NCBI GenBank assembly: GCA_041690105.1
Contig: JAWLHX010000001.1
Span: 14,939-78,938 of the forward strand
Length of the DNA stretch: 64,000 nucleotides
Direction: 5' to 3'
From: Phycisphaerae bacterium
GTDB taxonomy: Bacteria; Planctomycetota; Phycisphaerae; FEN-1346; JAACEH01
The position numbers were made by a program, and so were the translations under genes. The notes beneath the pieces are model-generated. The model was not told where the DNA came from, did no database searches, and saw only the letters and a program-made list of their open reading frames with translations. This document shows positions 6,384 to 63,107 of this stretch, piece after piece (the stretch's first letter is position 1; each line of letters starts with the position of its first letter).

Positions 6384-6430
6384 CAATGGCCTGATTGCTT
6401 CGGCATAATTCCAGAAAGGACGTTTCTTCT

Positions 6431-8066: not shown

Positions 8067-8078
8067 CAGAAGTTGAGG

Positions 8079-23917: not shown

Positions 23918-23973
23918 ATTAATGTTCCTTACCAGTAGCCCAATAAGATGTCCATTTCCCGGCCATATCTTTC

Positions 23974-33673: not shown

Positions 33674-33694
33674 CCTGTTGGGCAACGCGTCTTA

Positions 33695-34369: not shown

Positions 34370-34374
34370 GTCGC

Positions 34375-37509: not shown

Positions 37510-37865
37510 GAACTGTGTCCCCTGTACCGCGGACGCGCGGCACTCCCAAGTTATTCTAAGAAACCACACGGAGAATGCAATACTTAGAGCTACACCGTCT
37601 TGTTTTTGTGTGCTACCGCCACCTGCTGCTCCCGCATGTACGGCACCAGCTTGTTGAGCAGGTCGTGCCGCTTCTCGCAGTCGCAGGCCGAGGGGGACGC
37701 TGCGGCCGGATCGGCCCGCGTAGGAGTCCCCAGAATGCGGTTTTTCGCCTCAAGTCTCAAAGTCTCATGTTCTTTCGTCCTGCACCCCCTAGGGTCACGA
37801 GTATGAACGGTTCATCCGCAATTACCATAGCCAGTTCTGCGGACGCTGGGAGCGGTAGCCGGCCC

Positions 37866-40780: not shown

Positions 40781-43147
40781 TTACTGTTCGAACGTCAACC
40801 CGCCATCACCGGCCATATCCACCAGCCGGTCGGTATTCTCGGCAGTCTTCTCCGCCGCCTTGGCGGTCCGCTCCGCGGCCGATGCACCGCCGATGCTGAG
40901 GCCCTGCAGAGCGACGGCGCTGAAGGTGCCGATGGTCGCGAACTTCGACTGCACCTCGGCCACGCCCTTGGCCAGCCACGGGAACATATCCGTGTTGGGC
41001 TGTATCTTCGGCCCGCCCTGCTTCGCCCCGCCTGGCTTGCCCGGTGCCTCTTGCCCCGCCGGCGTCTGCTTCTTCTTCGTCTCGGCGATGGCGTCCTGCC
41101 ATTCCTTCCGGGCCGCGTCAACTTCGTCCTGGGCCGCGGCGATCCGCTGGTCGTATTCATCGTCAAGGGCCTGCTTTTTGGCCTCCTGCTCGGCCGTGAG
41201 CTGGTCCATGACGGCATTGTGCAGCGATTCCTCCTGACGACGTTCGGCGTCGCGCTGGGCCTCGCGGGCCCGGACGGCGCCATTGGCCTGCTCGTCAACC
41301 TTCTTGTTCTCCGCCTCCAGCCAAGCGTCGGCCCCGGCGTTGGCGGTATTGGAGTCGAAGCTGTCGTCAAAGAGACCCTTCAGCCAGTTCCAGGACTTCG
41401 AGACCTGCGCCCCCGCCCAGTTCCAGGCTTTGCCGATGCCCTGGCAGAACCGCGTCCAGGTGGTCGAGAGGAAGCTGGTCGTTTCGATCCAGGCAATCTC
41501 CAGCCCGTGCCAGACCGTCTCGGCCGCCCGCACCGCTCCGTAGAAGGCGTCGTAGGCCAGGCGGATGAAGAAGTTGCGGAAGTCGAGCCATAGCTTCGAG
41601 AGCCAGGCGATACCCTTCTGCCACTGGAGCTTCAGCGTCAACCACAGCACCTTGGCCGCCAGACCGATGTCGCCCGAAGCCAGGGCCGCACCGATGGCGC
41701 CAAAGGCCTCGCCCGCGTCGGCTGCCAGATCGCCGAAGACGCCCTTCAGCCATTCCAGAGCCTTGCCGCCCGCGCCGGTCCAGTAGAGGATGGCCGCACC
41801 AAGCGCCACGACGCCCACAATCACCAGGCCGATGGGCGAAAGGATCGCCCCGAGAATTGAGCCCGCCACGCCGAGCACCGTGCCCAGCACTGTGACAATA
41901 GTTGCCAGCCCGCCGATGGCCGTGGCCACCACGCTGGCGGCCAGCCCGAGGCCGATGAGTACCGCGCCCACTGCCGCCACGCCGACCGCCACTTTGGCGA
42001 TGATGACCACCAACGGCTTGTTGGCCTTGACGAATCCGGTCACAAAGCCCGCCGCTTTGCTCAGCCAGTCAGCAATGTCCGAAATGGCCGGTGCCAAAGC
42101 GTCGCCGATAGAGAGGGCAATGCCCTCAACCGCCGACCAGAACCGCCGCAAGGCTCCGCCGATGCCGGCATCCATCTCCGTGGCCGTCCGCGCCGCCGTG
42201 CCTGCCGCATTGTCGATGGCCTCGTTCAGCCGGTCGAATGACGCCCCCGTCAGCTTGGCTGCACCGGCAATGGCCCGGTCGCCGAAGAGTTCCGACAAGA
42301 GCGACACGCGCTCGGCCTGCCCCATGTTCTGCATGGCCTGGCCCACATCCGAAAGGATCGCCGAGACCGTCCGCAGGTTGCCGCCGGCATCGGTTACAGC
42401 CACGCCCATTCCTTCCAGCGTCTTCTGCACCTGGGGATTGGCGATCTGGAGCATGACCCGCTTCAGGGTGTTGCCGGCCATGGAGCCCTTGATGCCGAAG
42501 TTGGCCAGTGCTCCCAGCGTCTTGGCGGTCTCCTCCAGCGTCAGGCCGTAGGTCGAGGCCACCGGGGCAGCGTACTTCATGGACTCGCCCAGATCGGTGA
42601 TGGTCTGGGCGGAGCCATTGGCCGTGGCCGTCAGCACATCGGCCACGCGGCCCATCTCGGCAGCCTCCAGATCGAAGGCCCGCAGCGACGCTCCGGCGAT
42701 GTCGGCGGCCTCCGAAAGCTCGACACCCGTAGCCCGCGAGAGGTTCAGGATGTCGCCGATGGAGGCGTTGATCTCGTCCGACGAGAATCCCGCCCGCCCG
42801 AGTTCGGTCATGCCGGCGGCCACCTGGGCGGCGGTGAAGCTGGTGGTGCGGCCCAGTTCCTTGGCTGTCTCGGTGAGCATCTCAAACTGTTCGGCCGAGG
42901 CCCCGGTGACGGCCTTGACCGTCCGCATCTGGTCGTCGAAGGCCATAAAGACGCGGGTCGCCAGGGCGAAGCCGCCGGTCATGGCCGCCCCGGCAGCGAA
43001 GACTCGCGTGCCAGCCGAACGCAGCGTGCGGCCGAAGGCCTGAAGCTTCCGCTGCGCCGCCCGCAGCCCGCGCACGAGCTTTGAGTCGTCGGCGAAGAGC
43101 TCGACGAAGGCGCGACCGGCGCGGATGGAACCAGCGCTGTTTGCCAT
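40781..43147 (-). CDS. Phage tail tape measure protein (TP901-type core)
   Basis: FTAAQVAAGMTELGRAGFSSDEINASIGDILNLSRATGVELSEAADIAGASLRAFDLE...TDLGESMKYAAPVASTYGLTLEETAKTLGALANFGIKGSMAGNTLKRV, Gly-rich TM helices and C-terminal coiled coil. 788 aa. Confidence 0.85.
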   Translation of the reverse strand: MANSAGSIRAGRAFVELFADDSKLVRGLRAAQRKLQAFGRTLRSAGTRVFAAGAAMTGGFALATRVFMAFDDQMRTVKAVTGASAEQFEMLTETAKELGRTTSFTAAQVAAGMTELGRAGFSSDEINASIGDILNLSRATGVELSEAADIAGASLRAFDLEAAEMGRVADVLTATANGSAQTITDLGESMKYAAPVASTYGLTLEETAKTLGALANFGIKGSMAGNTLKRVMLQIANPQVQKTLEGMGVAVTDAGGNLRTVSAILSDVGQAMQNMGQAERVSLLSELFGDRAIAGAAKLTGASFDRLNEAIDNAAGTAARTATEMDAGIGGALRRFWSAVEGIALSIGDALAPAISDIADWLSKAAGFVTGFVKANKPLVVIIAKVAVGVAAVGAVLIGLGLAASVVATAIGGLATIVTVLGTVLGVAGSILGAILSPIGLVIVGVVALGAAILYWTGAGGKALEWLKGVFGDLAADAGEAFGAIGAALASGDIGLAAKVLWLTLKLQWQKGIAWLSKLWLDFRNFFIRLAYDAFYGAVRAAETVWHGLEIAWIETTSFLSTTWTRFCQGIGKAWNWAGAQVSKSWNWLKGLFDDSFDSNTANAGADAWLEAENKKVDEQANGAVRAREAQRDAERRQEESLHNAVMDQLTAEQEAKKQALDDEYDQRIAAAQDEVDAARKEWQDAIAETKKKQTPAGQEAPGKPGGAKQGGPKIQPNTDMFPWLAKGVAEVQSKFATIGTFSAVALQGLSIGGASAAERTAKAAEKTAENTDRLVDMAGDGGLTFEQ

Positions 43148-49711: not shown

Positions 49712-51787
49712 TTACGCCTCGCCCTTGGCCTTTACACCGCCCCGCGGGTCCTGCAGAGCCACGCCGAAGTCGTGATAACCGCGCATCTGGACGCCGAGGA
49801 CGTTGAAGTCGGCCTCCGCCGTCTCGATGGTGGGCGACTCCTGGCCATTGAGGAACGCCACCTCGATGACCGGCAGGTCGCCCGGGTCGGCCAGCAGGTA
49901 CCAGGCTTTTGAACTTGCGCCCGTGTAGCGGCTGTTGCTCAGGTAGCGGCTGACCTCGGTCCGGAACTTCCCGGCGTGCGGGTTGGCCACCGGGTACTTG
50001 GTGCTGGAGGTCGTATCGCGAATCTCCAGACTCTTGTGCAGCACCATGGCCATGGCCGACAGAGCCGTGGGTACCAGCAGGATGCTGGGCATGATGCCGA
50101 TCGGCTTGTTGTCGGCGTCGACCTGATCCATGAAGGTCACTTCGCCCTTCGTCAGACCATCGATCCCCAGCACTGTGTCGGCGCCACTGACGTAATTGGC
50201 GTTACCGGCGGAGAAAAAGCTGCTGTTGGCCAGGAATACCGACCAGAAGACGTCGTTGATCTTCAGCCCCGAGCCGCGGCCCAGCTTCCTGGGCACCGTG
50301 GTGATGGCCCCGAGATCATCATTTATGATGTCGCGGCGATCCACTGAGAGCATCAGGCCGTAGGTGTCGGCCCTGTTGGCGTAGCTTTCCTCCCCGAGCG
50401 TTCCGTGCTTCAGTTCGCCGCCGGGGGCCACGATTTCATACTGGTCCTTGCCGACCAGCCGGTAGCTGGTGACCGTCTTGAAATCCCGCACGCTGCGCAG
50501 AGCGCAGATGTTCCGCCAGACCCGCTCCACGCTGAAGAAGCCATCAAGCAGAAACTTGTTGGCCACGTTCGACAGGATGCCGCCGATGTCGACCGTCGAG
50601 AAACCAGCCTGAATGTCGGCAAAGGCATGGCGCAGCACCGCCCGGCTGTCGCGGAACGTGCGGCCCGTGTAGCCGTTGGCCCAAGCGGCCTCCAGCAGCA
50701 GTTCCTGCAGCCCCAGGCCACCCCGGAAGCGCTTGTCAGCGGCGTCGAGGGTCTTTTCGTCGAACTCCTTCTCCACGCCCTCAAACCTGGCGGAGATCAT
50801 GCAGGCCGCTTCCAGCAGACGCCCGCTCATCGGGTTATCCGGTACGTGGGCCGCAGGCGCCTTGGGCCTTGAGGCCCTGAGTACTTCCAGTTCTGTCTTC
50901 GTCTCGTCCCAGCCCTCCTCGATGGCTTTGGCCTCGATTTCGGCGAACCTGCCGTTGCAGATCCGCCGGATGGCGCTGATGCGGTTGGTTTCAAGCAGCG
51001 CCCGGGCACGGATCTCCTTCACCGGATCGGCCGCCTCCACCGTGCCAGCGGTCTGCTGCTCCAGAGTCTGAACAGGGGCCGCCACCTGACCCTTGCCTTC
51101 GCCGGTCGCCGTCTGCTCGTGGCCTTCCACACTGTTCTGTTCCGTGACAACCTCGGTCGTCTCGTTCGTCACCACGTCCATATGCTCTTTCTCCCTGGCG
51201 GCTCCTGTGCCCGCCGCGATACTGGCTGACGTCTGATCGTCCGCCCCGTTGCCCACGAAACTCACTTCCGACAGTTGCGACCGCCGAGCCACATTGATCG
51301 GCCCGCTGACCTCCCTGCCGTTGACATTCAAGGTCCTGCCTTCGGGAACGAACTCCACCTCCTGCACGCTCGCTCCGATTGAGGCCTGCCACGGATAGCC
51401 ATTTTCGGCGTCGGCCACCACCTCACGGGCCGCGGCACTTGTCGAACTGACCACACCGGTCACCCGTAGCCGGCCACCGAGTACGTTCACAGCCTCCAGA
51501 TGGCCGACCCGCGCCGTGCGATTGTGATCGAGGTAGACCTTGGCTCCGCCACGGATCGACAGGCCGTCCAGATCGACAACCACCGGAAAACGCCAGCCCG
51601 CGAGGGTCAGGGGACCGCCGGTATAGGCATCCATGTGGAACTTCCGCGGCCGGGCGGGCATGCCTTCGCCACCAGTGACAGCCTCGGCCGCCTCAATATT
51701 GATGTCGGCGCTCAGCGTCAGTTCACGCGGCACGTCGGGTTTCTCCGTCAGCATTCTGGTCATCTTCATCCTTCTCCTCGTTTTCAT
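49712..51787 (-). CDS. Prohead protease - scaffold-like linker - HK97-fold major capsid protein fusion
   Basis: N-terminal ~200 aa are protease-like, followed by an acidic low-complexity linker. The C-terminal ~400 aa carry capsid-like segments (...ARFEGVEKEFDEKTLDAADKRFRGGLGLQELLLE...SYRLVGKDQYEI...). Confidence 0.7.
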   Translation of the reverse strand: MKTRRRMKMTRMLTEKPDVPRELTLSADINIEAAEAVTGGEGMPARPRKFHMDAYTGGPLTLAGWRFPVVVDLDGLSIRGGAKVYLDHNRTARVGHLEAVNVLGGRLRVTGVVSSTSAAAREVVADAENGYPWQASIGASVQEVEFVPEGRTLNVNGREVSGPINVARRSQLSEVSFVGNGADDQTSASIAAGTGAAREKEHMDVVTNETTEVVTEQNSVEGHEQTATGEGKGQVAAPVQTLEQQTAGTVEAADPVKEIRARALLETNRISAIRRICNGRFAEIEAKAIEEGWDETKTELEVLRASRPKAPAAHVPDNPMSGRLLEAACMISARFEGVEKEFDEKTLDAADKRFRGGLGLQELLLEAAWANGYTGRTFRDSRAVLRHAFADIQAGFSTVDIGGILSNVANKFLLDGFFSVERVWRNICALRSVRDFKTVTSYRLVGKDQYEIVAPGGELKHGTLGEESYANRADTYGLMLSVDRRDIINDDLGAITTVPRKLGRGSGLKINDVFWSVFLANSSFFSAGNANYVSGADTVLGIDGLTKGEVTFMDQVDADNKPIGIMPSILLVPTALSAMAMVLHKSLEIRDTTSSTKYPVANPHAGKFRTEVSRYLSNSRYTGASSKAWYLLADPGDLPVIEVAFLNGQESPTIETAEADFNVLGVQMRGYHDFGVALQDPRGGVKAKGEA

Positions 51788-53213
51788 CCTGCGGCTCGGC
51801 CTTCGTCCGCGGCTGCGCCTCGGCCAGGCCCAGTTCCTTCATCAGGGCCAGCTCCTTGGCCCTCTGCCGCAATTCCGTCTCCCAGTCCTTGCCCTGCCGG
51901 GCATATTCCGTGGCCAGCGTGGTTGTGTTGGATGCCAGGCGAGTGGCCTGAGCATTGGCTTCCTTGGCCGGATCAACGTGTTCACGGCCGTCCCAGAACC
52001 ACTGGTGCGGCGCATTTTCCGGCAGCGCCCATCGGTACACCCTCACGGCCTCGGCCAGCCACGCCGTCAGAATCCTGTCCAGCACCAGCGTCTCAACGTG
52101 CGATTGCTCAACCCTGATCGATTTGTAGTAGGTCTGGTGATCCAGTCGCCCCGAGGCATAGTTGTAGCCGCTGGAGTTGCAGGCGGCGATGTTGAACGGC
52201 ATGTTCAGGCAGCGGGCGATTTCATTGAGAATCTCGTGCTTGAACTCGCTGTAAGTCGTGGCCGGCTGCTCCGCCTTGATCTGGCTCGGCTCCCACCCTT
52301 CCGGGCCGAAAACAGCCATGTTCGGCTCGAACTCCATGGTCACGCCGGCATCGACTTCAGCCGCCTCGCCACCGGTGGGGGCGTTTGTCTTCATGAAGAT
52401 CGCCACGTTGGCCGCCGACTCGGCCGCCGCGATCACCGCCAGCGTATAGCGCCTCAGCTGGGCAAAGAGCGGCAGGGCAGGCAGGATGTCTGGCAATCCG
52501 CGTGACTGGCCCGGGCGGTCCTGCCGCAACCAGTGCACCACGGCCTCCGCGGGAATGCGGTCGTAGTCCCGGCCGAAGCAACCGGCACCGTCACCGGGGT
52601 GGGCCTTCAGAACGTGGTATTCCACGGGGTTGCCTGCATCATCAAAGACAATTCCGTCAACCGCATGCCTCCCCGGCGTTCGGTCCGGCGTCGTCACCTG
52701 GTCGGCCTCGACCAGCCGCAGGTCAAGCTGCACCGCGGTATCAAGGGCCGGATTATCAAAGAGCACGGCAAAGGCCTCGCCGTCCTGCGCGCGGGCCATC
52801 CGCATCGTCCGCAACTTGCCGGCCAGATCGACCTCTCGCGCCCAGCGGCAGAACTCCTGCTCGATAACGTGGTTCAGACTGCTATTGAGTCCGTCGCCGA
52901 GCAGCATCTGCAGCCGTGGTCCGGTGCCGATGACGTCATTGGCCAGTGTCAGCACGATGCCACGGGCATAGCTGTTGTTGGCCACTTCATACCGCGCCCG
53001 GCTCCGCAGCACGCGCCGCACTTCCGGGCTGGCAGCCGCGTTGGCTGACAGATGATCGGCATTGGCCCAATGGCGACGATTGTCGGGCGTGGTCTGGGCG
53101 GAGTCGAATCTGGCCCGGACAAACAGTTGCTGCACGGCCGTAATGGCCCGCCGGCGGCGTCTTTCCCCGGCACCCGACCACACGCCCTTGAACTTGTCGA
53201 TAATGCGTCCCAT
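51723..53213 (-). CDS. Phage portal protein (lambda-like family)
   Basis: Start MGRIIDKFKGVW. Size and acidic C-terminal tail are typical of portals. Overlaps the capsid fusion gene start. Confidence 0.8.
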   Translation of the reverse strand: MGRIIDKFKGVWSGAGERRRRRAITAVQQLFVRARFDSAQTTPDNRRHWANADHLSANAAASPEVRRVLRSRARYEVANNSYARGIVLTLANDVIGTGPRLQMLLGDGLNSSLNHVIEQEFCRWAREVDLAGKLRTMRMARAQDGEAFAVLFDNPALDTAVQLDLRLVEADQVTTPDRTPGRHAVDGIVFDDAGNPVEYHVLKAHPGDGAGCFGRDYDRIPAEAVVHWLRQDRPGQSRGLPDILPALPLFAQLRRYTLAVIAAAESAANVAIFMKTNAPTGGEAAEVDAGVTMEFEPNMAVFGPEGWEPSQIKAEQPATTYSEFKHEILNEIARCLNMPFNIAACNSSGYNYASGRLDHQTYYKSIRVEQSHVETLVLDRILTAWLAEAVRVYRWALPENAPHQWFWDGREHVDPAKEANAQATRLASNTTTLATEYARQGKDWETELRQRAKELALMKELGLAEAQPRTKAEPQDENEEKDEDDQNADGETRRAA

Positions 53214-53427
53214 GCTCACACGGCCCCCGGCGGCACGATCTTCACTTTCCGTAGCCCCATGTTGCGGGATGACATGGCCCGCTTGCCCGCCAGATACTTG
53301 TCCGCCGTAATCTGATCCGCCAGCGAGTGCTGCTCCATGCTGCCGGAATCGCCGCTGGCTTTGCGCGGCCCGGCGGCATTCTGCTGAATTGCGTTTTCCA
53401 GTTCTTCCGGCACCTTTATCTCCTTTG

Positions 53428-53502
53428 GACGCGGGAGTTGGACGCGAACCAGCGCAATCGCCTTTTGAGCCCCGCGCTCTGCCAATTGAGCTATCCCGCA
53501 AG
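53428..53502 (-). tRNA. tRNA-like element with encoded CCA; anticodon stem does not pair (probable pseudo-tRNA)
   Basis: Minus strand: TGCGGGA-TA-GCTC-AATTGGCA-GAGC-G-CGGGG-CTCAAAA-GGCGA-TTGC-GCTGG-TTCGCGT-CCAAC-TCCCGCG-T-CCA. Acceptor (7 bp with one G.U), D-arm and T-arm fold well. The anticodon loop is CU-CAA-AA. Positions 39-43 (GGCGA) cannot pair with 27-31 (CGGGG). Confidence 0.35.
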
Positions 53503-53647
53503 CGGACAACGCGACCGTTTGTTGTCCGGTCTGGTTGTGTGGCCTATCTATATCGTCGTCCGAATGTCACGCCAGCGGAAACAGAGGCGACGGAATTGAG
53601 GATTCCAGATCTGGAAAGAAACTGTGCCGAAGGTTATCCTGTTGTCC

Positions 53648-54562
53648 ATGGACTCCAGAAAACAGACATCCCAATACATCCTGCTTGCCGCGGTGATAGT
53701 CGCAGTGAGCGCCGTTGTGTTGCTTTGCGCCGTCGTGGAATGGCAGCAGCCTTCGAGACAACCCACAGTACCTGCAGTTGCTGACGAGCCACGAGCCGGC
53801 GATCCGGTCGTACAGACTGGCCATGATCCTATTCCTGAAGCCTTGCCGGCAACGGCCGCGGATCGCATACATGCCTATGCCGGGCTGCCCCGCTCCACAG
53901 GCCCTGTGACGGTGCTGGTGAACAGCGGCTATGTCGTCGGTTATTGTGACACGCGTCAGAATCCCCTGTGGGTCTGTTACCGTCTATCGCGAGTCGCTCC
54001 GTCCAGGGCTCCGCCCAGGCCAAGCCGCTTCATTACCGACATGCGCACCCAAGCCCGTGTCACGCATGATGCCTACACCCACAGCGGCTACGACCGCGAC
54101 CATATGGCTCCAAACTACGGCATCGCCACTCGCTACGGCGTTGAAACCCAGATTGAGACATTTCGGATGTCCAACGTGGTGCCGCAGACGCCTACGCTCA
54201 ACCAGGGTATTTGGCGGCGACTGGAGCAGCTTGAGGCAGACAAGTATGCCCAGGTGTTTGAGGATGTCTGGGTAATCACGGGCCCGATCTTCGGCGATGA
54301 TGCCCGAAGGCTGCCAAGCGGAGTGTTAATACCAGATGGCTGCTTTAAGATCATTCTGAAGGAGATCGATGGGCATCCGCATGTGCTGGCGTTCATCATA
54401 CCTCAGGACGTTACCACCAAGGCCATCCTTGAATCATATCTGACCAGCGTCAGGGAGATCGAGCGACTGACGGGACTGGATTTTCTGGCTGACCTGCCGG
54501 ACAGTCTCGAAGAGCTGTTAGAAATGCAGACAGCCACAGCCCTGTGGCTGTCGCCCAACTGA
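53648..54562 (+). CDS. Secreted DNA/RNA non-specific endonuclease (Serratia NucA-like)
   Basis: N-terminal signal anchor QYILLAAVIVAVSAVVLLCAVV. Catalytic region DRDHMAPNYGIATRYGVETQIETFRMSNVVPQTPTLNQGIWRRLE, with a DRGH-like motif. GTG 53624 is an alternative start. Confidence 0.8.
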   Translation: MDSRKQTSQYILLAAVIVAVSAVVLLCAVVEWQQPSRQPTVPAVADEPRAGDPVVQTGHDPIPEALPATAADRIHAYAGLPRSTGPVTVLVNSGYVVGYCDTRQNPLWVCYRLSRVAPSRAPPRPSRFITDMRTQARVTHDAYTHSGYDRDHMAPNYGIATRYGVETQIETFRMSNVVPQTPTLNQGIWRRLEQLEADKYAQVFEDVWVITGPIFGDDARRLPSGVLIPDGCFKIILKEIDGHPHVLAFIIPQDVTTKAILESYLTSVREIERLTGLDFLADLPDSLEELLEMQTATALWLSPN

Positions 54563-54968
54563 CGCCCGTCAAAGGATCGTTCGATCCCAGCCAACCGGCA
54601 GATTGGAAGTCCGCCGCCAAAGCCCGTATCTGATAACCGCCGACGATATAAGCCCGATCTGGCAAAGGATATCCACTGGTTCTGAATGCATTCCGAGAGA
54701 ATCCGCCGCTAATATTCGGGCCGCTCATCCTGCAGCCGCTTGGCTAGGTCCACCTGCCGCAAACATCGCACCGTCTGGCCAGAATGGCGGCGACTTTTTC
54801 GTTGCGCTCGCGCGCCGTCATCTCCGGCGGCTTCCTAAGAGCGTACATTGAGCCTCCTTGCCTATATACTGTTAACATACCGGAAACGAAAGCGGTTTGG
54901 TTGTAACGGGCCTTGGATTCCTGGGAAAAACTTGGGGAACCGGGAGAGGACAAGTGGTGAGTAGGTGA

Positions 54969-57900
54969 CTATCGTCCTCGATGTTTTCTCTTGGCTCGTC
55001 TGCATCGCCAACGCCTCAGGAAGCGGGATAGTCGCCTCCATTTTCTGCGACTGCGTTCGGGCAGGGCATTCAGAGGAGTTCTGTAGACGGGACGCGCTAT
55101 GACGGGGCCCGAAAGGGCGCGCGGCATTCTTTCCAGCAACTGCTCGATGAGTTTGGCCGCTTGACGTTCTTTTGGACAGCGGAACCATATCTTCGCGATG
55201 AGTTGGCTCGTCAGGAAGCAGTTCTGGGAGTTCATTGGAACGACTGCGGCAATGAAATCAATGGTGCGCATGGCAGGCTCGCGGTCACCGTCCCAATTGG
55301 CCTCCGAGAACAAGTACACCGCGGCATCTGCCGTCAGCCGTGGTGCGACATAGCCCCAGCTGAATGCTTTTCCGAGAGCTTCATTTACAGCTGTCGAGCC
55401 AAGCTCCCGTGCTGTTGAGACAAGGACGCTCTGTGTCCACACGGACTCAACACCCCAGCTCTGTGCGGCCATAACAGCAACAACAAGATCGTCGGTCCAA
55501 AGCGGGGCCTTCCTCTGGCGGGCAATGGCAATTGCATGGACCGCACCAGCCCCGAGCATCCGAGTTAATGCGGTGCGTTGATCGTGAGGCAGATCGAGGA
55601 CAGCGCTGCCGCCAACCACCTCACAGTCGTGTGCGATCGTTATGATGAGTTCGTCGAGCTGTGCTGCCCAGAGGGCCTCCTGCTCCCGCGAAGACTCCCG
55701 GAACACTGGCCGCCCATCGTGAAATCCCAGATACCCGGCACGCTCTGTGCCTGGGTCATGTTTGCTTCGCAACTCGCGTAGCTGGTGCAGGGAGGCCTCC
55801 GTCACAATGCAACGAAAAGGCAAGTCCCTGAGCCGTGCATGAACGCCGAGCAGGAACAAAGATGCTATTGCAGTTTCATCGAGTACTATGCAGTTGGCTT
55901 CGCGAACGATTATTGCTGACTGTTGCCAGAGGGGCTCGCCCTCCGGACTGCAGCGTACACCGAGATGGCGGCTCTCTGCAAGGTATCCCATGGTTTCCAG
56001 CACTGACCGGCCAAGCAACTGAGCCACAGAAGCGATTGGGATGCCTTGTTGTGCGTAGAGCCCCTCTACGGCGGTCTGTCGCTCATGCTCTTCCTCCAGA
56101 TACTGATACACCTCTCCCAAGGCCGCTTTCGGCTCCGCGATTGTGCCAAGATTGGGTGACACGGTGAAGCGGCGAATCGAAGGGTTGTTGGGAAATGCTT
56201 CCTCGAATCCTTCGAGGCACTCGCGGGCCCTGTATACTATTTTCGACTCTATGCTGATGATCTTATAGTCATGCCCTTGGAAGCTGAAGGTCTCCCCCAC
56301 GGCCTTGCCCAGCATCGCCTCCGCAAGGCCATGATCCGGGGCATACTCATGGCGAGTGACGCTCGGTGTCAGGCCAGGCTCAATGACCGCAACAAGTAAC
56401 CGTCCAGACGCCACCTCTTGGTAGCGAACCGAGCTGTCTGCATCTATCCGTTCGGGCGGGGCGAAGGTGGGCTTTCCCGGAGAGGGGTCAAGAACCGCAC
56501 GGATGAGCGTGTGCTGGGCCGCCTGAACATCGGGGAACTTGCGCCAGAGGTCGTAGGCATAGTTGGCGGCAAGCATGGCATCGGGGCCATGGCGGAGAAC
56601 GTGATAAACAACCGCGCCCGCTTCGGCCGCCGTCAGTTCGGACACCGAGGGTAACTTGACGGCATCCGTTTCCACCAACTCTGGAAAGTTTCGCTCAATG
56701 GCCAGGCTGGAGAGATTGAGACGCATTATCTTGTCGTCTGGGTGTGCCGTCAGCCATTCCTGCATGAGCGATATCGCCTCGCGGTGCTCATGGCACCTGA
56801 TGAGGACATCGGCTTCCGACTCGTAAACATGGCGGGTCACAATGCCATTCGCGCGCAAGGCACGACACAAGGTGAGAATGTAACCGTCGTCCTGAGCAAG
56901 CCTCGCAGTAACTAGAGCACGCTGCGTATCGCTGTTGAACAGCTTCGGGGTCACGATAGTCCGCCACAGCAACAACGACAGCTGATAGTCACCAAGACTG
57001 TGGGCAAGAATGGCGGCTTCTCGGCGGTATTCCCACACACCGCGATCCATCAACTGCGTGATGGCAAGGCCAAGCGCGGACCTGGCCCCTTCCTTGTCAC
57101 CCGCGTTGAACAAGATGCGGGCGAGGATGGTCTCCCGGCAGCCGCTGTCAAGCAACTCCTGCGGTACACTCTCAACGGCGTTCCTCGCATCTTGCGGTTG
57201 AGCCAAGTCGCTAAAGAGCATTGCCAGCAGGCCCACAACATCGGACCGATCTGACTCTGACAGTGCTGGGAGCCGCTGCATCCAAGGCTGGAGCACCGCG
57301 ACGGCCTTCTTCCGGTCACCGTCTGTCCCTCTTTCCCTGAGAAGCACCGCGAGAAGAAATGATGCCCGCTGGTGGGATGCAAGTGCCGGCAGCGACTCAA
57401 GAAGGGCAATGGCTTGATCCCGGTGCCCTTCATGATCCAACATCGCAGCCATAACCACGGCGATTTCGGGTTCGCCCGGATTTCGCCGATGCGATTCTCG
57501 TATGTCCTCGCCCGCCTCCGTGGTCTTACCCAGTAAGCGTCGTGCCGACGCACGATTCAGATAAGCCGCGGGCAGCAGTTTGGCCGGGTCAGAGGCAGGA
57601 ATCAGCTGAATGGCCTCGTTCAGCAGAGACTCTGCTTCTTGCATGCTTTCACGGCTCTCTGGAATCAAACCCCTGTCAACATCGGGCAACGCACGCAGTC
57701 GCTCTCTCTTCAGCAGAGCCCCAGACAGGTTGACGAGACCGTACGGCCATTCTGGTGCTCCGTGCACGGCGCGCCGCCCGTATTCCACGGCCTTTTCCAC
57801 CAAATCCTGCTCAAAGGCTAGGCCACCAAGAGCGCCCGCCACTTCAGCATCGTTCAGAAGGGCGTCAGGGATCAAGGATTCCGCTTCTTCTAGGGAGGTC

Positions 57901-59339
57901 CCTTCAGGAAGCGACGCGATTAGGAGCCAATGTGCTCGACCAAAGCTAGGCTCTTGTTCACACAACTGCCTCGCCAGCCCGTGTGCAATTGGGTACTCTC
58001 TTCGGAGAACATAGGCCATTATCCGAAAAGCGAGAGCGTCGCGAGTGTCTCGAAGCGCTGCCGCCTGAAGGTACTGCTCTGCCGCTTTGTCCATCTCACC
58101 CATGCTGTAATAAGCATTCCCGATATTGGCGCGAACGCGATACTTGAGCCTTGGTGTAAGCCTATTTCCCTCACGCTGCTCAATCCTTTCGTATAGCTCG
58201 ACGGCCGTGTGCGGTTCCCCGCGTTTCACGTAACGGAAGATCTCATCGATCTCCGTGTCAACTGGGGTCCGTTCATTACCAGCGACGTCTGACCCAGCGG
58301 ATTGCCCCTGCGATGAAGCCAAAGCACTCCAGCTTCTGCCTGTCGCGTTCTGAATTGCGCCCGTCACGGCGCGCTGGGCTTCCGCCAATATAATTGGGCT
58401 GTCCTTGATCACGTCCTGAAGCGCGGCTACGGCCATCGTCTGAGCAACTCGTGCGACTTCCTCGCCGTCGGAACGTACAGCCCGGAGTCGTTCGACATCC
58501 AGTCGCAGTTGAGCCATGAAAGGAATAATTGCTTCATGGTTTCCCGACTTTGGATAGAAGATAGGACGAATCCTGTATCGCCGCTCGATTCGCTCACGGA
58601 GGGCCGACTCCTCGCCCGCCGCGGGCTGCTCCAATAGAGCAAAATGTTTCGGTTCCCCCTCACCCAACACTGCCGCCACGAAACGCAGGGGCTCAAGGTC
58701 ACTTTCGTTCATGCCACAGCCGATAAACACGCATCGACACACTGTAAAGATGGTAGCCAACGAGTGGCGGGCTAAAGTTTCTCGATGGTACCTGCGATTG
58801 TAGTCATCGAGAGTCAATATGATGCCCGAGGACTTGCCGACCGAACCATGCACGTGTACCACGTTTCTGTCAGCGATACGAGAAGTCAGGTTGTCCAGGA
58901 ATTGCCGAAGGAGGGCTTCTTCCTGAAAATCGAAATGCCGGGCCTCAAGCCCAGCGACCTCCAGGTGAGCGGCTTCCAGAACGTAATCATAGTTGAACGT
59001 CAGGTAATGGGTGAAAGGCAGCCGCAAGAGGTCGCGGTGGAAATCACTTAGACGGGCCTTCGCGGGTGCAAATATGCCTGCAACCATAGCCAGCAAAGCA
59101 TCGCGCCCCAGTAGTTCTTCACAGCAGGCTGCCTCGACCAATGCGTCTTTGCTCTGTCGAAGCGATGCTAGCCTCAGGGCCGCTTCCGGATGAGTCCGGA
59201 GTATCTCGCCGGAAATGAACTTCAACAAACCATCCCAAGAGGGATAGCCAGCACCCATGCTGCTCCCTGCGCCAACCATGGCGATGGCGCCATTGGCAAT
59301 CGCCTGCACCAGGCTCTCGTAGTCTTCTCGATTCTGCAT
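54969..59339 (-). CDS. 1456-aa SIR2-like (SIR2_2) - TPR array - GreA/B C-terminal-like - PIN-like protein; candidate single-gene anti-phage defence system carried by the prophage
   Basis: aa 1-230: GAGSSMGAGYPSWDGLL, THYLTFNYDYVLEAA, VVHVHGSVGKSSGIILTLDDY (SIR2_2 signatures TxNYD and HxHGS). aa ~300-950: TPR-like repeats. aa ~970-1035: EYAPDHGLAEAMLGKAVGETFSFQGHDYKIISIE (GreA/B-C FKBP-like motif). aa ~1140-1400: CIVLDETAIASLFLLG...LWTDDLVVAV (PIN-like acidic residues). Arg-rich C-terminal tail. No P-loop. Confidence 0.75.
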   Translation of the reverse strand: MQNREDYESLVQAIANGAIAMVGAGSSMGAGYPSWDGLLKFISGEILRTHPEAALRLASLRQSKDALVEAACCEELLGRDALLAMVAGIFAPAKARLSDFHRDLLRLPFTHYLTFNYDYVLEAAHLEVAGLEARHFDFQEEALLRQFLDNLTSRIADRNVVHVHGSVGKSSGIILTLDDYNRRYHRETLARHSLATIFTVCRCVFIGCGMNESDLEPLRFVAAVLGEGEPKHFALLEQPAAGEESALRERIERRYRIRPIFYPKSGNHEAIIPFMAQLRLDVERLRAVRSDGEEVARVAQTMAVAALQDVIKDSPIILAEAQRAVTGAIQNATGRSWSALASSQGQSAGSDVAGNERTPVDTEIDEIFRYVKRGEPHTAVELYERIEQREGNRLTPRLKYRVRANIGNAYYSMGEMDKAAEQYLQAAALRDTRDALAFRIMAYVLRREYPIAHGLARQLCEQEPSFGRAHWLLIASLPEGTSLEEAESLIPDALLNDAEVAGALGGLAFEQDLVEKAVEYGRRAVHGAPEWPYGLVNLSGALLKRERLRALPDVDRGLIPESRESMQEAESLLNEAIQLIPASDPAKLLPAAYLNRASARRLLGKTTEAGEDIRESHRRNPGEPEIAVVMAAMLDHEGHRDQAIALLESLPALASHQRASFLLAVLLRERGTDGDRKKAVAVLQPWMQRLPALSESDRSDVVGLLAMLFSDLAQPQDARNAVESVPQELLDSGCRETILARILFNAGDKEGARSALGLAITQLMDRGVWEYRREAAILAHSLGDYQLSLLLWRTIVTPKLFNSDTQRALVTARLAQDDGYILTLCRALRANGIVTRHVYESEADVLIRCHEHREAISLMQEWLTAHPDDKIMRLNLSSLAIERNFPELVETDAVKLPSVSELTAAEAGAVVYHVLRHGPDAMLAANYAYDLWRKFPDVQAAQHTLIRAVLDPSPGKPTFAPPERIDADSSVRYQEVASGRLLVAVIEPGLTPSVTRHEYAPDHGLAEAMLGKAVGETFSFQGHDYKIISIESKIVYRARECLEGFEEAFPNNPSIRRFTVSPNLGTIAEPKAALGEVYQYLEEEHERQTAVEGLYAQQGIPIASVAQLLGRSVLETMGYLAESRHLGVRCSPEGEPLWQQSAIIVREANCIVLDETAIASLFLLGVHARLRDLPFRCIVTEASLHQLRELRSKHDPGTERAGYLGFHDGRPVFRESSREQEALWAAQLDELIITIAHDCEVVGGSAVLDLPHDQRTALTRMLGAGAVHAIAIARQRKAPLWTDDLVVAVMAAQSWGVESVWTQSVLVSTARELGSTAVNEALGKAFSWGYVAPRLTADAAVYLFSEANWDGDREPAMRTIDFIAAVVPMNSQNCFLTSQLIAKIWFRCPKERQAAKLIEQLLERMPRALSGPVIARPVYRTPLNALPERSRRKWRRLSRFLRRWRCRRAKRKHRGR

Positions 59340-59425
59340 TGCTCGTTGATTATAGTGATGAAGCCAGAAATCAACAATACGAAGATGACAAAGTTCCGTA
59401 ACGTTGCCGTGCTACGCGTGCGTCC

Positions 59426-59446
59426 GCTGTTCGCTAACAGCGAACG
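59426..59446. promoter_or_regulatory. Palindrome ~90 bp upstream of the SIR2-TPR gene start
   Basis: GCTGTTCGCTAACAGCGAAC contains GTTCGCT-aac-AGCGAAC (7-bp arms). CGCTAAC is repeated at 59451. Confidence 0.25.
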
Positions 59447-59797
59447 TGCTCGCTAACCGCCATCGAGGAATTGGTGCTTCGAAGAGAGGTTCTCTCGGGC
59501 ACCCCAGCGAGAGGAAAATTGTTAACCCGAACCGGTGGCGGAAGAGAGCAAATGGAGAGTTCTCGCCGCTGTGGGCGGCCGTCGGGCGGGTACGAGCCTG
59601 GCGGGAAACGCTTCACCCCAAACAGAGAGCGCCGGGCATCGCGAGCCGGAACCGCCGTAAGCCTTTGCAACCAATAGGTTATAGCGATTCTGCTGCGGAC
59701 TATCGGGGACCCGAATACGAGCCAACACTAAAAGCCCACCATTGGTGGGCTTTTAGTGTTGGCTCCCCTATCTGGATGCGGATGTACGGCTCACCGG

Positions 59798-60376
59798 TTA
59801 ACGGCTCATAGGTGTCTCGAACTCTGCTACCAGAGCTTTAACCTGCTTGGCCAGCTGATCGACCGATTCCTGAAGCCGATTGATCGCCCCAAGCACCAAC
59901 AGCTGCTGTGCTTCTCCGTTTTCCATTCTCTGCCATATTCTGGCCAGTTCAGTTGAAAGGTCAAGCTGCGGAAACAGCGTCTTGATTGCCTCCAGTTGCC
60001 TGAGCGTCTGGCTGTCGGCCACGCTGGCGACGGCCTCGTGGCGTTCGTCGCGCGGCTCGTGCCGGTGGTAAGCATACTTATGCGGCGCTCTTTGTCGGAA
60101 CCAGGCGTGACGATTAGCCACATTCTGCGGCTTGAGGTGCGGCTGAAGCTGCGGGTGCTTCTCCAAAAGGGCTCTGCGGATCATCTCCAGCACCTTCGGC
60201 AGTGGCGGGCGGGGCTCCAGTTTCATGGCCGCCTCCCAAGTCCGCTCAAACACCAGATCCATCTGCCATGTCCAGTAAAGACGCCCGTCGCGGCCCACCT
60301 GCACAACGTTATTGCTGCCCATTGGTTCCCTCGTTTCTCGCGTCATGCGCAACATCGCCTCAACAACCAGGTGCAC
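59798..60376 (-). CDS. Hypothetical protein between terminase and defence gene
   Basis: 192-aa ORF with no recognisable domain; start uncertain. Confidence 0.4.
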   Translation of the reverse strand: MHLVVEAMLRMTRETREPMGSNNVVQVGRDGRLYWTWQMDLVFERTWEAAMKLEPRPPLPKVLEMIRRALLEKHPQLQPHLKPQNVANRHAWFRQRAPHKYAYHRHEPRDERHEAVASVADSQTLRQLEAIKTLFPQLDLSTELARIWQRMENGEAQQLLVLGAINRLQESVDQLAKQVKALVAEFETPMSR

Positions 60377-60437
60377 ATGAAGCCAAAAGGTTAAGCATTC
60401 ATCCAGTTAATTCCTGCAATAGCAGGCACTTATGTCA

Positions 60438-60635
60438 TTAATCCAGTATCCGCTCCGAAGTTGTCGCCCGCTGACCGCAGTAGCGGCAATGGCGATAACG
60501 GATAATGCGGCCGCTGGCCCGAGTGGTATGGTCCACGGGCATGTCGCGGCAGCCGCACTTGCGGCACTCCAGACCGCTGGTCTTCTCCGGCGGCCACTTC
60601 TTACGCGTCACATCTGACGTCGTCACCAAATTCAT
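60438..60635 (-). CDS. Cys4 zinc-ribbon protein (Ogr/Delta-like architecture)
   Basis: CRKCGC...x22...CRYCG; 65 aa. ATGA coupling to the terminase stop. Confidence 0.5.
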   Translation of the reverse strand: MNLVTTSDVTRKKWPPEKTSGLECRKCGCRDMPVDHTTRASGRIIRYRHCRYCGQRATTSERILD

Positions 60636-62917
60636 CTCCTCCTCAGGTCATCCTGCGTGTACCGCTTCCGCTGCCGCGCGGGTTTCTCTTCCATGCCCGG
60701 TGCCCGCACGCCGCACATCGAGGCCGCGGCGGCGCAGCCCACCAGGCAGTCGAACCAGTGGTTGTCGGGCTTGGATGGCCGTAGCGACCATTCATGCACC
60801 ACGCGACCATGGCCCTGCGTCTCGACCCACGTTTCGGAGTGAGCCACATGTTCGGCAAGCAACTCGTGATCGCGACCCTTGCGGCCGAAGATCGATAGCG
60901 AACCCGGATCGCCGGCGGCCGTGGCAAAGCCGCTGTGGACGAACGATTTCCAGTAGTTGACGTCCACCGCAACGTGCGGGAACTCAGCCGTCCTGCCGAC
61001 GTTCGGCACGTACCAGAAGTGACCGTGCACTTCGCCGGGCTTGCGGGCGTAAGTTGACATGGGCTTGCGGCCGCTCTTGATGCCCACGCCCTTGGAGAGC
61101 ATCATCACGGCTCCGCCGACCTTGTGCTTGGCGTCCGCCACGAGCCCCGGCTTGTACCCAATGTCCACCAGCAGCCGGTCGATTCTCGTCAAGCCATCGC
61201 CGCGCTTGAAGTCCCGCCCCAGTTGCGTGGAGATGAGCCGCTCCAGCCCGGCGCGTATGGCGCCGTCGCCGCCCATGCCCGGAAAGGCCCGCCCCAGCGT
61301 CCTGCGGGCCTGATACATGGTGAAGTAGCCCTGCGACTGCTCCGGAAAAGTGCCATAATCAACCACATAGCCGGTGAAATTCTCCTCCCAGGCGCAGATG
61401 CACCAGTAGAGCAGCTTTTCGTGGACGTCGATGAACATGGTCAGCCTGGTGGCCGCCAGCGGCACCTCGCCACGGGCTCGGCCGTTTATCTTCTCCATCA
61501 CCTGCTCGGGCCGCAGCAGATCGTCGTGCACCTGCTCCTGCATCGGCTCGTTCTGGTATTCGGCGAAGAAGGCCTCTTCGTCCCGCAGCTTCAGGTTCAT
61601 GGCGTGCTGCAGGGCCGAAAGTTCCTTCCTGGCGTCGAACCGCTCCGGCCAGGCAACCACGGCACCGGCGTCCATGGCCTCGCGATTGGCACGATAAAAC
61701 TCCGTTGCCTCGTCACCGCCATGACCCTGTCGCAGGCTATCGGCCCTGATCGTCGCGTACTGCTGCCACAGCCGTTCGTTTGCGGGGAAGCTATAGATCA
61801 GCTTGGTGCATTCAGCCTGCCATTCCGGGCACTTCTCGTGATCAAGCACCTGGTCGGCGAGGTCGGCTTCATAGATCTTGGTGCAGGTCAGCACACCGGC
61901 GATCTCTTCGCCGGGCCCGGCCAGACCCAGCACGTCACCGTTCAGCAGCTGCAGGCGATACTTCGTCTGAGTCGGCGAGCGGGCCGACTGCCGTGTCTGC
62001 GGATCATCCAGCAGCACCAGCGAGGGCCGAATAGTCGAGCCGTCCATGCGGGTATGCTGCTGGCCGCGCATGTTGGCGTCGAGGCTGGTGATGGTGATGA
62101 TCGAGCCGCTTGATGGGCTGGTCTCCATTCCCGCCTCGCGCAGGGCCTGCGGCAGGTGTTCGGCCTCCACGGTCGGAAAGACCAGCTTGTCCTGACCCCA
62201 CAGGAGGTGCGTCAGACGCCCACGGATGTGCTGCTGGAGTTGCCGCTTTGATGAATTCTCGAGGCTGCGCAGCGGATAGACCGCCTCCGGGAAGTCAGCC
62301 AGCAGGCCGGGATTCTCGAGGATATACTTCTTGATCGGCAGCAGCAGATCCTTGGCCCGCTCGTCCGAGCCACCGATCAGGCAGACAAACGGCCGGGAGC
62401 CGATCAGCACGGCCCACAAGGCCGAGAGGCGGGCCAGCGTCGTCTTGCCAGACCCACGCGGCATGGCGAAAGCGAACAACCCGCCATCCTTGACCGCCCG
62501 CTCGATCTTCGACAGCACCTTCAGATGGTCGTCGCTCCAGTTCCTGTAGAAAGCCCGCGGAAAATAGGTCTCGCAGAACAGACGCAACGAAGCACTTGTG
62601 GCCAGCCGCCGCTCATAGTCCTCGATCTCCGGGATGGGGAAGATGTCCTGGGCGGCCTTGGTACCGGCCCGGTTCTTTTCGGCCTGCCGCCGCCTGGCCT
62701 CCACGTAGTCGATGGGCCTTGTCCGCGGCCGGTCCAGTTCACGCGCCAGCCATGCGGCGTAGCGCACCAGGTGGATACGCTTTCCATCGCCCACACGAAA
62801 GGCAGCCTTATCCATCTGCCGGCGAAGGCGCGAACGATCTATCACCGTGCCCAGGGGCGTGGCGTTGACGATTTGCAGCAGTTCCGTCTGCGACAGGTTG
62901 GTCACATCAATCGGCAC
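60632..62917 (-). CDS. Phage terminase large subunit (GpA-like)
   Basis: Walker A-like FAFAMPRGSGKTTLARLSALWAV. The 761-aa size matches lambda gpA-type terminases. The N-terminal ~70 aa contain a Nu1-like wHTH (HLVRYAAWLAREL). Confidence 0.8.
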   Translation of the reverse strand: MPIDVTNLSQTELLQIVNATPLGTVIDRSRLRRQMDKAAFRVGDGKRIHLVRYAAWLARELDRPRTRPIDYVEARRRQAEKNRAGTKAAQDIFPIPEIEDYERRLATSASLRLFCETYFPRAFYRNWSDDHLKVLSKIERAVKDGGLFAFAMPRGSGKTTLARLSALWAVLIGSRPFVCLIGGSDERAKDLLLPIKKYILENPGLLADFPEAVYPLRSLENSSKRQLQQHIRGRLTHLLWGQDKLVFPTVEAEHLPQALREAGMETSPSSGSIITITSLDANMRGQQHTRMDGSTIRPSLVLLDDPQTRQSARSPTQTKYRLQLLNGDVLGLAGPGEEIAGVLTCTKIYEADLADQVLDHEKCPEWQAECTKLIYSFPANERLWQQYATIRADSLRQGHGGDEATEFYRANREAMDAGAVVAWPERFDARKELSALQHAMNLKLRDEEAFFAEYQNEPMQEQVHDDLLRPEQVMEKINGRARGEVPLAATRLTMFIDVHEKLLYWCICAWEENFTGYVVDYGTFPEQSQGYFTMYQARRTLGRAFPGMGGDGAIRAGLERLISTQLGRDFKRGDGLTRIDRLLVDIGYKPGLVADAKHKVGGAVMMLSKGVGIKSGRKPMSTYARKPGEVHGHFWYVPNVGRTAEFPHVAVDVNYWKSFVHSGFATAAGDPGSLSIFGRKGRDHELLAEHVAHSETWVETQGHGRVVHEWSLRPSKPDNHWFDCLVGCAAAASMCGVRAPGMEEKPARQRKRYTQDDLRRR

Positions 62918-63107
62918 AAGCCATCTCCTTGTTCAGCCAGGCCACGTACTGCACCAGGTTGAGCCTTCCGTCAGGCCCAAGCGGCAGACCACGAGCCACG
63001 TGCTCGCGCACCTTTTCCACAGGCAGAGACAGCAGCCTGGCCGCCTCTTCCATGGTCAGTCCGGCCGGGTTGATGCCGCCCGGCACCGCGGCGATTTGCT
63101 TGCTCAC
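62907..63107 (-). CDS. Nu1-like winged-HTH protein (small terminase N-terminal domain-like)
   Basis: MEEAARLLSLPVEKVREHVARGLPLGPDGRLNLVQYVAWLNKE resembles lambda Nu1 (...PVLRGGGKGNEVLYDSAAVIKWY). Confidence 0.5.
   Translation of the reverse strand: MSKQIAAVPGGINPAGLTMEEAARLLSLPVEKVREHVARGLPLGPDGRLNLVQYVAWLNKEMACAD

Follow-up and report, generated by a model that had tools for sequence, protein, structure and literature searches.

What occupies the 7,419 bp that separate the gene for the large terminase subunit (TerL; 60632-62917, minus strand) from the portal gene (51723-53213, minus strand) in a lambda-like prophage of a Phycisphaerae bacterium? The prophage lies in a stretch of 64,000 nucleotides (nt) from GenBank assembly GCA_041690105.1 (contig JAWLHX010000001.1, positions 14,939 to 78,938), the whole of which is referred to here as the window; its structural genes are all on the minus strand. 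A preliminary description of the window had remarked on the distance between the two genes and had read the intervening DNA as an accessory or defence hotspot. The distance is confirmed, and the reading is supported: across 80 non-redundant relatives the content and the length of this interval vary, and its flanks are conserved. The interval is very probably a recombinational cargo slot, that is, a moron or defence hotspot; it lies in the operon of packaging and head genes in a family of lambda-like siphoviral prophages whose hosts are Planctomycetota, for the most part Phycisphaerae.

The evidence that carries this reading comes from the relatives of TerL: 80 loci from IMG/VR (33-88% identity) and 42 from GTDB species representatives, 122 together. 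Both flanks are present in 102 of these, which dereplication at 95% identity reduces to 80, and the proteins of the window were mapped onto all loci by tblastn. Nearly every GTDB relative comes from a metagenome-assembled genome (MAG) assigned to Phycisphaerae, Phycisphaeraceae or another group of Planctomycetota, and this points to the hosts that the phage family uses. One order runs through the 102 loci: a small open reading frame (ORF), TerL, a zinc-ribbon gene (where present), the gap, sometimes a tRNA-Met gene, a gene of 65 amino acids (aa), portal and capsid. Within this order the distance from the end of TerL to the start of the portal gene ranges from 274 to 6,369 bp among the 80 non-redundant relatives, with a median of 803; the interval of the window is the longest of all. 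Forty-one of the 80 distances fall below 900 bp, leaving room for the zinc-ribbon and 65-aa genes only; the other 39 are longer, and about half of the relatives hold cargo in the slot. The locus L002, with a TerL 84% identical to that of the window, has an empty slot, and L001 (88%) has different cargo. Alignment of the flanks of related prophages, a comparison that the preliminary description had proposed, shows cargo that differs from locus to locus; in DNA alignments homology breaks off on the left immediately past the stop codon of the zinc-ribbon gene and on the right at a tRNA-like element. The same genes in conserved synteny, which would have pointed to core rather than accessory functions, were looked for in the relatives and not found: a SIR2 gene, a 192-aa ORF (p192) and a small ORF (orf69) that occupy the slot in the window are missing from all 122 loci of the TerL family, and the nuclease gene that accompanies them recurs at the same site in just one, L001, at 65% identity. 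The structural ORFs on either side are full length and 70-88% identical to those of the relatives. Conserved flanking order, variable content and empty sites, the marks of a hotspot, are all observed.

The cargo is also compositionally distinct from the core genes. No 500-nt segment between 53250 and 60250 departs from a GC content of 0.54-0.61, and the structural genes on either side have ~0.61-0.69 (0.58 in the slot versus 0.64 in the flanks). At third codon positions the GC content (GC3) of the four cargo ORFs is 0.62-0.69; TerL, portal, capsid and the 65-aa gene have values of 0.77-0.82, and the zinc-ribbon gene has 0.74. The lowest GC content of the region, only 0.39, belongs to a spacer at 60377-60437 and coincides exactly with the left cargo junction. 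In the relatives, too, the gap has a lower GC content than the flanks in the loci measured; the exceptions are L011 and L013, in each of which the gap is a single ORF of ~135 aa at flank-level GC.

These junctions redraw the limits of the hotspot. All the elements that had been named in the preliminary description (zinc ribbon, 192-aa ORF, SIR2 gene, small ORF, nuclease and tRNA-like element) are located in the interval, and the variable slot stands as described. The zinc ribbon and the tRNA-derived element, counted there as cargo, instead belong to a conserved frame, so that the cargo amounts to ~6.9 kb rather than 7.4 kb. It extends over ~53,501-60,437, and three unlinked cassettes make it up: p192, the SIR2 gene and the nuclease gene. 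The 65-aa gene on the portal side was absent from the earlier list of genes. From the TerL side to the portal side, the features are the following.

62907-63107: small ORF of 66 aa, without a library match; presumably helix-turn-helix-like, judged by eye
60632-62917, minus strand: TerL, large terminase subunit, 761 aa; left flank, in phage orientation (Pfam GpA_nuclease, E = 8e-12)
60438-60635, minus strand: four-Cys zinc ribbon, 65 aa, core gene; overlaps the TerL stop by 4 nt
60377-60437: spacer of 61 bp from the zinc-ribbon stop to the p192 ORF
59798-60376, minus strand: p192, cargo cassette 1; likely start at 60322 (174 aa)
59719-59765: perfect 23-bp inverted repeat with a 1-nt spacer
59349-59354, minus strand: TATAAT hexamer, 9 nt upstream of the ATG of the SIR2 gene
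54969-59339, minus strand: SIR2-TPR-GreA/B-C-PIN protein (SIR2-TGP), 1456 aa, cargo cassette 2
54744-54953, minus strand: orf69, a doubtful ORF of 69 aa in the convergent intergenic region
53624-54562, plus strand: Endonuclease_NS gene, 312 aa, cargo cassette 3, convergent (Pfam E = 1e-35)
53429-53500, minus strand: tRNA-like element (Rfam tRNA, 29.8 bits)
53216-53413, minus strand: core 65-aa gene in the position of lambda gpW; AAGGAG ribosome-binding site, GTG start
51723-53213, minus strand: portal, lambda family, right flank (Pfam Phage_portal_2, E = 8e-60); real ATG at 53213
49712-51787: protease-capsid fusion

The zinc ribbon (57 of the 80 non-redundant relatives) and the 65-aa gene (67 of 80) recur often enough to count as core genes. 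The premise of the preliminary description, that the portal gene directly follows the terminase gene, is accordingly only approximate: these two genes intervene here as part of the core, and in lambda gpW sits between terminase and portal. The zinc-ribbon gene is translationally coupled to TerL. Its family has four invariant cysteines (C24, C27, C50 and C53) and the motif R-x-R-x-C-R-H-C-G..T-T-x-E, and the family profile matches the N-terminal zinc ribbon of NrdR in the PDB (E = 1.2e-4); the protein is probably a TerL-coupled nucleic-acid-binding factor. A role as a late activator of the Ogr/Delta type, with which there is a resemblance in motif, is not claimed, the tools having returned an NrdR-type ribbon. 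The 65-aa gene ends 2 nt upstream of the portal ATG. Its family has no match in Pfam (24 family members), in PHROG or, by profile search, in the PDB; homology with gpW is unsupported by sequence, the correspondence being one of size and position only.

The right border of the slot is marked by the tRNA-like element at 53429-53500. ARAGORN calls no tRNA in the window, and the element just passes the Rfam tRNA model (29.8 bits, gathering score 29) with acceptor, D and T arms aligned and the anticodon arm unaligned. Its folding is on a par with that of shuffled sequence (z = -0.22), and as a functional tRNA, with a full cloverleaf that includes the anticodon arm, it fails. Thirteen non-redundant relatives, however, carry an intact tRNA-Met(CAT) gene no more than 73 nt upstream of the 65-aa gene; ARAGORN calls it in 11 loci, of which 10 have a spacing of 4-37 nt. 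Three further tRNA-like copies, besides those of L044 and L045, were found by similarity. A profile of the relatives' tRNA-Met genes scores the window element at 25.6 bits, versus 37-61 bits for intact copies, and the element is nearly identical, apart from its anticodon arm, to the tRNA-Met gene of L083, whose TerL is 84% identical to that of the window. From this near-identity and the profile match it is identified, by sequence comparison, as a decayed ortholog of the frame tRNA-Met(CAT) and not as cargo. Slots with an adjoining tRNA are occupied in 11 of 13 cases as against 18 of 67 without one (Fisher p = 1.5e-4, phylogeny ignored); the tRNA-bearing loci are phylogenetically clustered, which makes this association a lead, not a result. 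Intact tRNA-Met(CAT) genes upstream of the 65-aa gene occur in L003, L004, L005, L007, L069, L070, L083, L087, L088, L089, L093 and L098; in L003, L004 and L007 a conserved terminator-like hairpin lies ahead of the tRNA.

What fills the slot in the relatives was examined by Pfam scans of the larger gap ORFs. Occupied sites hold more than 14 unrelated Pfam families, and cargo genes are seen in both orientations. Locus by locus, the contents are as follows.

L001: DUF3427-HNH protein and the 65% identical homolog of the window nuclease
L007: MIP aquaporin
L017: SocA/Panacea
L018 and L063: AbiEi
L122: AbiEii
L027 and L029: GmrSD
L058 and L060: radical SAM-SPASM protein
L070: 866-aa kinase-HD protein
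L026: 6-kb cluster of ABC-transporter genes
L077: AAA_28 NTPase, located between TerL and zinc ribbon
L084: DUF445
L087: REase-ARP
L097: PIN_3 with HTH_17
L098: 1104-aa PEP-CTERM/dockerin surface protein

Defence-type cargo is thus represented by GmrSD, AbiEi and AbiEii, Panacea, PIN_3 with a helix-turn-helix (HTH) domain, REase-ARP, HNH and, in the window, SIR2-TGP. Several large cargo proteins have no Pfam match: L004:12350-13528 (392 aa), L022:2824-4083 (419 aa), L069:1063-2370 (435 aa), L093:2499-3929 (476 aa), L120:457-2013 (518 aa), L026:15887-17989 (700 aa), and a 675-aa protein that L019:9121-11148 shares with L095:10804-12831. These proteins of 392-700 aa are candidate new accessory or defence genes. 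A second, rarer insertion point lies between TerL and the zinc ribbon (L077:377-2697, L058:2042-2912 and L060:2042-2567). In two further loci, L114:12459-22214 and L123:10417-20232, TerL and the zinc ribbon are followed by neither 65-aa gene nor portal within ~10 kb; larger cargo, rearrangement, masked sequence or a truncated prophage could each account for this, and L114 contains a 2071-aa ORF as well as masked runs of N.

The 1456-aa protein of cassette 2 (54969-59339) had been called a SIR2-TPR protein in the preliminary description. Both parts are present; the name is incomplete, because the full architecture, read from the N-terminus, has four parts.

aa ~8-270 (58530-59318, minus strand): SIR2 domain, NADase type (Pfam SIR2_2 at aa 111-260, E = 1e-17)
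aa ~370-880 (56700-58232, minus strand): TPR array (several Pfam TPR families)
aa ~905-1048 (56196-56627, minus strand): GreA/GreB/Gfh1-like module (AlphaFold2 model and Foldseek)
aa 1152-1292 (55464-55886, minus strand): PIN nuclease domain (PF20698, 53.8 bits versus a cutoff of 27.8)

The Pfam family of the last domain is itself defined as 'PIN domain associated with the TPR-GreAB-C-PIN system', and Foldseek adds VapC and PIN structures at probability ~1.0 and template-modelling scores of 0.6-0.68. Pfam does not detect a GreA/B-C domain in the 1456-aa protein; the evidence for it is structural. An AlphaFold2 model of aa 900-1456 has a predicted local distance difference test score (pLDDT) of 84.8, and its top Foldseek matches in the PDB are GreA, Gfh1, Rnk and GreB; the range given above derives from the secondary structure of the model (helices at fragment residues 6-51 and a beta domain at 60-133), not from the residues aligned by Foldseek. 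For the C-terminal half, a word-indexed homolog search gave a single protein and an exhaustive HMMER search of 1.84 billion cluster representatives revealed the family: 1,482 relatives of the C-terminal module at E < 1e-3 and 205 at E < 1e-30. Among the matches listed, the SIR2 N-terminus is common to 27 proteins of 1,355-1,507 aa, that of the window and 26 homologs, and at least 26 of the 27 keep the catalytic residues of both enzymatic domains: TxNYD (T114, N116, Y117, D118) and HxHG (H162, H164, G165) in SIR2, and the acidic D1154, D1283 and D1284 in PIN. In two distant relatives (P0004 and P0005) PadR takes the place of SIR2; P0004 also has Mrr_cat, an Mrr-type restriction endonuclease (REase) domain. 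A full-length homolog in a Phycisphaeraceae MAG (P0003) lies directly upstream of a module of DUF2924 and a serine recombinase, so that SIR2-TGP is associated with a mobile element there too.

The family to which this protein belongs was defined computationally in 2021 as the TPR-GreA/B-C-PIN (TGP) system, in which a constant region of TPR, GreA/B-C and PIN is preceded by one of 13 N-terminal effectors, SIR2 being among those named; the genes mostly stand alone (Kaur, Iyer, Burroughs & Aravind, PMC8195603). TGP proteins were predicted to act on virus-hijacked RNA polymerase, the PIN domain cleaving the transcript and the N-terminal effector serving as a back-up (PMC8195603). All four TGP parts are present in the protein of the window, which is a member of the SIR2 subfamily: it resembles the described systems in its whole architecture and differs only by its site, a prophage head operon. 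A TGP protein, Agp, acts together with Bab in abortive-infection defence against T5; the defence needs an intact GreA/B-C, and the gene is found in a prophage hotspot (bioRxiv 10.1101/2024.11.07.622273). Agp of E. coli ECOR25 and the protein of the window are alike in being TGP proteins of a prophage defence hotspot. They differ in size (1094 versus 1456 aa) and in the effector: Agp uses an N-terminal amyloid motif to signal to the separate, pore-like Bab, whereas the protein of the window carries its effector, the SIR2 domain, as a fusion and has no neighbour that resembles Bab. Neither the TGP nor the Bab/Agp paper cited contains an experimentally tested TGP protein with a SIR2 domain.

PADLOC returns ThsA, Dsr1, LmuA and Dsr2, all of them confined to the SIR2 part (aa 8-270). 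The SIR2_2-type domain with TxNYD and HxHG is indeed common to the protein of the window and to ThsA, DSR1/DSR2 and Lamassu LmuA-SIR2, and the domain presumably acts as an NADase. The sensors are unrelated: SLOG, the DSR C-terminal region and LmuB/LmuC are all missing here, and no ThsB, LmuB/LmuC or similar partner gene lies near the SIR2-TGP gene, which places the protein outside the Thoeris, DSR and Lamassu systems. SIR2-TGP is a candidate anti-phage effector. Its gene is preceded by a perfect TATAAT at 59349-59354, which was read by eye and had been missed by a consensus scan on account of a weak -35 element; the hexamer is a candidate promoter of the gene's own, giving a near-leaderless mRNA.

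The other two cassettes have histories of their own. p192 is a helical protein; homologs and an NCBI call (P0156) place its start at M19, yielding the 174-aa form. It matches nothing in Pfam, PHROG or PADLOC, and an AlphaFold2 model from a shallow alignment (pLDDT 66) finds nothing in the PDB below E = 3 by Foldseek. Homologs that are 73-82% identical lie directly downstream of a module composed of DUF2924, a serine recombinase and a 150-aa gene, and some are placed at a prophage-host junction beside a Na+/H+ exchanger gene. None was located near a TGP gene; a role for p192 as regulator or antitoxin of SIR2-TGP is rejected, since homologs of each occur without the other. The three cassettes are likewise unlinked elsewhere: the nuclease accompanies an HNH gene in L001, and SIR2-TGP homologs are found without p192 or the nuclease. 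The integrase-proximal position of p192 and SIR2-TGP relatives suggests a pool of cargo common to this slot and to that position in other Planctomycetota prophages. The module itself (DUF2924, a large serine recombinase and a gene of 140-150 aa) recurs at L081:10001-17330, L125:738-3790, L023:18439-20911 and L018:3775-4934, and is present also on contigs of the TerL family.

The convergent gene at 53624-54562 is predicted to encode a Serratia-type non-specific DNA/RNA endonuclease, exported or membrane-anchored by way of an N-terminal hydrophobic helix (~aa 17-40). PHROG agrees on a nuclease (E = 2e-22), and the motifs DRDH, NVVPQ and LNQGxW..LE are intact; they presumably contain the counterparts of the His, Asn and Glu that are catalytic in Serratia NucA. 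The homolog in L001 has the same position and the same antisense orientation, with DUF3427-HNH as its neighbour instead of the SIR2 gene. Lambda morons and the secreted DNases Sda1 and Spd1 of streptococcal prophages offer a parallel: the putative non-specific nuclease of the window is likewise encoded by an accessory prophage gene with an orientation and signals of its own, and has a putative export signal. Unlike the streptococcal case, the host here is not a known pathogen. The neighbouring orf69 has no family match in Pfam, PHROG or PADLOC and no homolog in any locus.

Between p192 and the SIR2-TGP gene lie 458 bp of non-coding DNA, which begin with the 23-bp inverted repeat at 59719-59765. 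The repeat is 100% complementary, is preceded by an A-run and followed by a T-run, and starts ~30 nt past the p192 stop; it looks like a bidirectional terminator. Rfam matches to a miRNA and to TCV_H5 on both strands of 59718-59768 are artefacts of the perfect hairpin.

How such a slot might be filled and used can be pictured as follows. Cassettes would enter it by illegitimate recombination, and related phages would then swap them by homologous recombination through the conserved flanks. Because they would bring expression signals of their own (the TATAAT hexamer, the hairpin, the antisense placement of the nuclease), they could be expressed from the lysogen. SIR2-TGP would most likely protect the lysogen from other phages, as has been proposed for TGP proteins: TPR and GreA/B-C would sense or bind RNA polymerase captured by an invader, the PIN domain would cut transcripts, and depletion of NAD+ by the SIR2 domain would be the abortive-infection back-up. 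The most likely role of the nuclease would be to degrade extracellular or periplasmic nucleic acid, in the service of nutrition, biofilm turnover or the exclusion of incoming DNA.

Several observations weigh against this picture. The slot holds non-defence cargo too (aquaporin, ABC transporter, PEP-CTERM surface protein, DUF445), and it is therefore a general accessory site with a strong defence flavour, as judged from the Pfam families present, and not a dedicated defence island. Neither flanking repeats nor recombinase genes are found in the interval, and the mechanism of cassette exchange is a matter of inference. No whole-protein model in PADLOC matches the 1456-aa protein, and the Foldseek E-values of the GreA-like module are marginal (1.5e-3 to 0.17) despite probabilities of 0.97-1.00. 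The promoter and terminator calls are consensus matches whose regional counts are no higher than in shuffled sequence, and a strong hairpin within a late operon could mean that the prophage is crippled.

This last thought leads to one of the competing accounts, in which foreign DNA interrupts the late operon of a decaying, defective prophage or has been joined to it by faulty assembly. The perfect 23-bp terminator-like hairpin in a late operon and the decayed tRNA would fit, as would a second non-structural island, restriction-modification included, at 28.7-37.6 kb of the window, and the source is apparently a metagenome-type assembly. The account is nevertheless improbable: the flanking structural ORFs are all full length and 70-88% identical to relatives, L001 independently confirms the junction between the nuclease and the 65-aa gene, and many viral contigs and MAGs, independent of one another, have cargo in this slot, as is usual for about half of the family. 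Nor is it likely, the chance being put slightly lower still, that the 7 kb are a single self-mobile element (an integrative element, a transposon or a tRNA-targeting island) whose insertion at tRNA-Met damaged the tRNA. A tRNA-Met gene does border the slot, loci with one are more often occupied (again with phylogeny ignored), the copy in the window has lost its anticodon arm, and homologs of p192 belong elsewhere to serine-integrase modules. The interval has, however, no integrase or transposase, no flanking direct or inverted repeats, no att-like repeats and no second tRNA fragment, and the three cassettes are found separately elsewhere. The geometry is also wrong: elements inserted by an integrase usually end up on the 3' side of the tRNA that it targets, and here the cargo sits on the 5' side. 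The decay, moreover, is confined to the internal anticodon arm, with acceptor, D and T arms intact, which is unlike an insertion scar.

The converse proposition, that everything between terminase and portal consists of core genes of the lineage for packaging or head assembly, has almost nothing left to recommend it as an account of the interval. It is true of two elements, the zinc ribbon (57 of 80) and the 65-aa gene (67 of 80), and tRNA-Met is conserved within a subclade; for the three cassettes it is already refuted by the content of the relatives and the lengths of their intervals. With p192, SIR2-TGP and orf69 in 0 of 122 loci and the nuclease in one, with 41 of 80 intervals below 900 bp and without room for cassettes, and with a cargo GC3 of 0.62-0.69 set against 0.77-0.82 in the core, the recombinational cargo slot is the reading that best accounts for the locus. 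A bolder form of it would make the block of terminator, tRNA-Met(CAT) and 65-aa gene a landing pad or homology arm that drives the turnover, and the site an undescribed class of tRNA-marked defence hotspot in the head-morphogenesis operon of a widespread family of Planctomycetota phages, with a cargo pool common to the integrase slot. This is a tentative suggestion, on balance doubtful; if it is true, the tRNA-marked site could serve as a source of new defence genes in a phylum whose phage biology is almost a blank.

Phage defence hotspots are already known, and the locus adds a good example to them rather than a system of a new type. Its nearest described counterparts are the anti-phage hotspots of P2 prophages (the old/tin locus, from gpA to the portal gene gpQ) and of P4 satellites (Rousset et al. 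2022, PMC9122126), which are enriched in restriction enzymes, abortive-infection genes, toxin-antitoxin genes and other defence genes (PMC9122126). There as here, a fixed site between conserved genes of temperate phages receives many alternative arrangements that include defence-type genes, and the P2 hotspot, like this one, adjoins the portal gene. The differences are that the present family is one of Planctomycetota phages, that its slot lies within the packaging and head operon and not in a cos-proximal position between replication and portal genes, that it holds non-defence cargo, and that tRNA-Met is often part of its frame. Phage-borne hotspots matter because they are a productive source of new anti-phage systems and explain how lysogens gain immunity. 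This one comes from prophages of Planctomycetota, whose phages have barely been studied, and its position among packaging and head genes is uncommon; it offers about 40 occupied sites, several with large Pfam-less proteins as candidates for unknown defence functions. A natural, prophage-borne, SIR2-fused TGP protein with both catalytic sites intact is, in addition, a good subject for the RNA-polymerase-sensing model. Known concepts (the prophage defence hotspot and the TGP system) are in this way extended to a new phage group, not changed.

Outside the interval, three other blocks of the window can be set down. To the left of the tail genes (tape measure at 40781-43147), a second non-structural block at 28768-37569 contains a Schlafen/AlbA_2 protein with HATPase_c_4 (28768-30489, minus strand), an MmeI-like type IIL restriction-modification enzyme (30578-33673, plus strand) and a 1064-aa protein of the Eco57I/N6_Mtase type (34375-37569, minus strand); it is probably one more island of defence genes, at the end of the prophage that bears the tail genes. 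Three large minus-strand ORFs of 394, 2355 and 854 aa, the second of them with RHS repeats, follow at 15737-26538 with a GC3 of ~0.6, and may be a host toxin locus or a part of the prophage. The remaining block, 13-14191, consists of host-like plus-strand genes (MauE-like, a secretin with Secretin_N, a T2SSE ATPase and a TPR protein) with a GC3 of 0.56-0.68, similar to that of the hotspot cargo and below that of the phage core genes.

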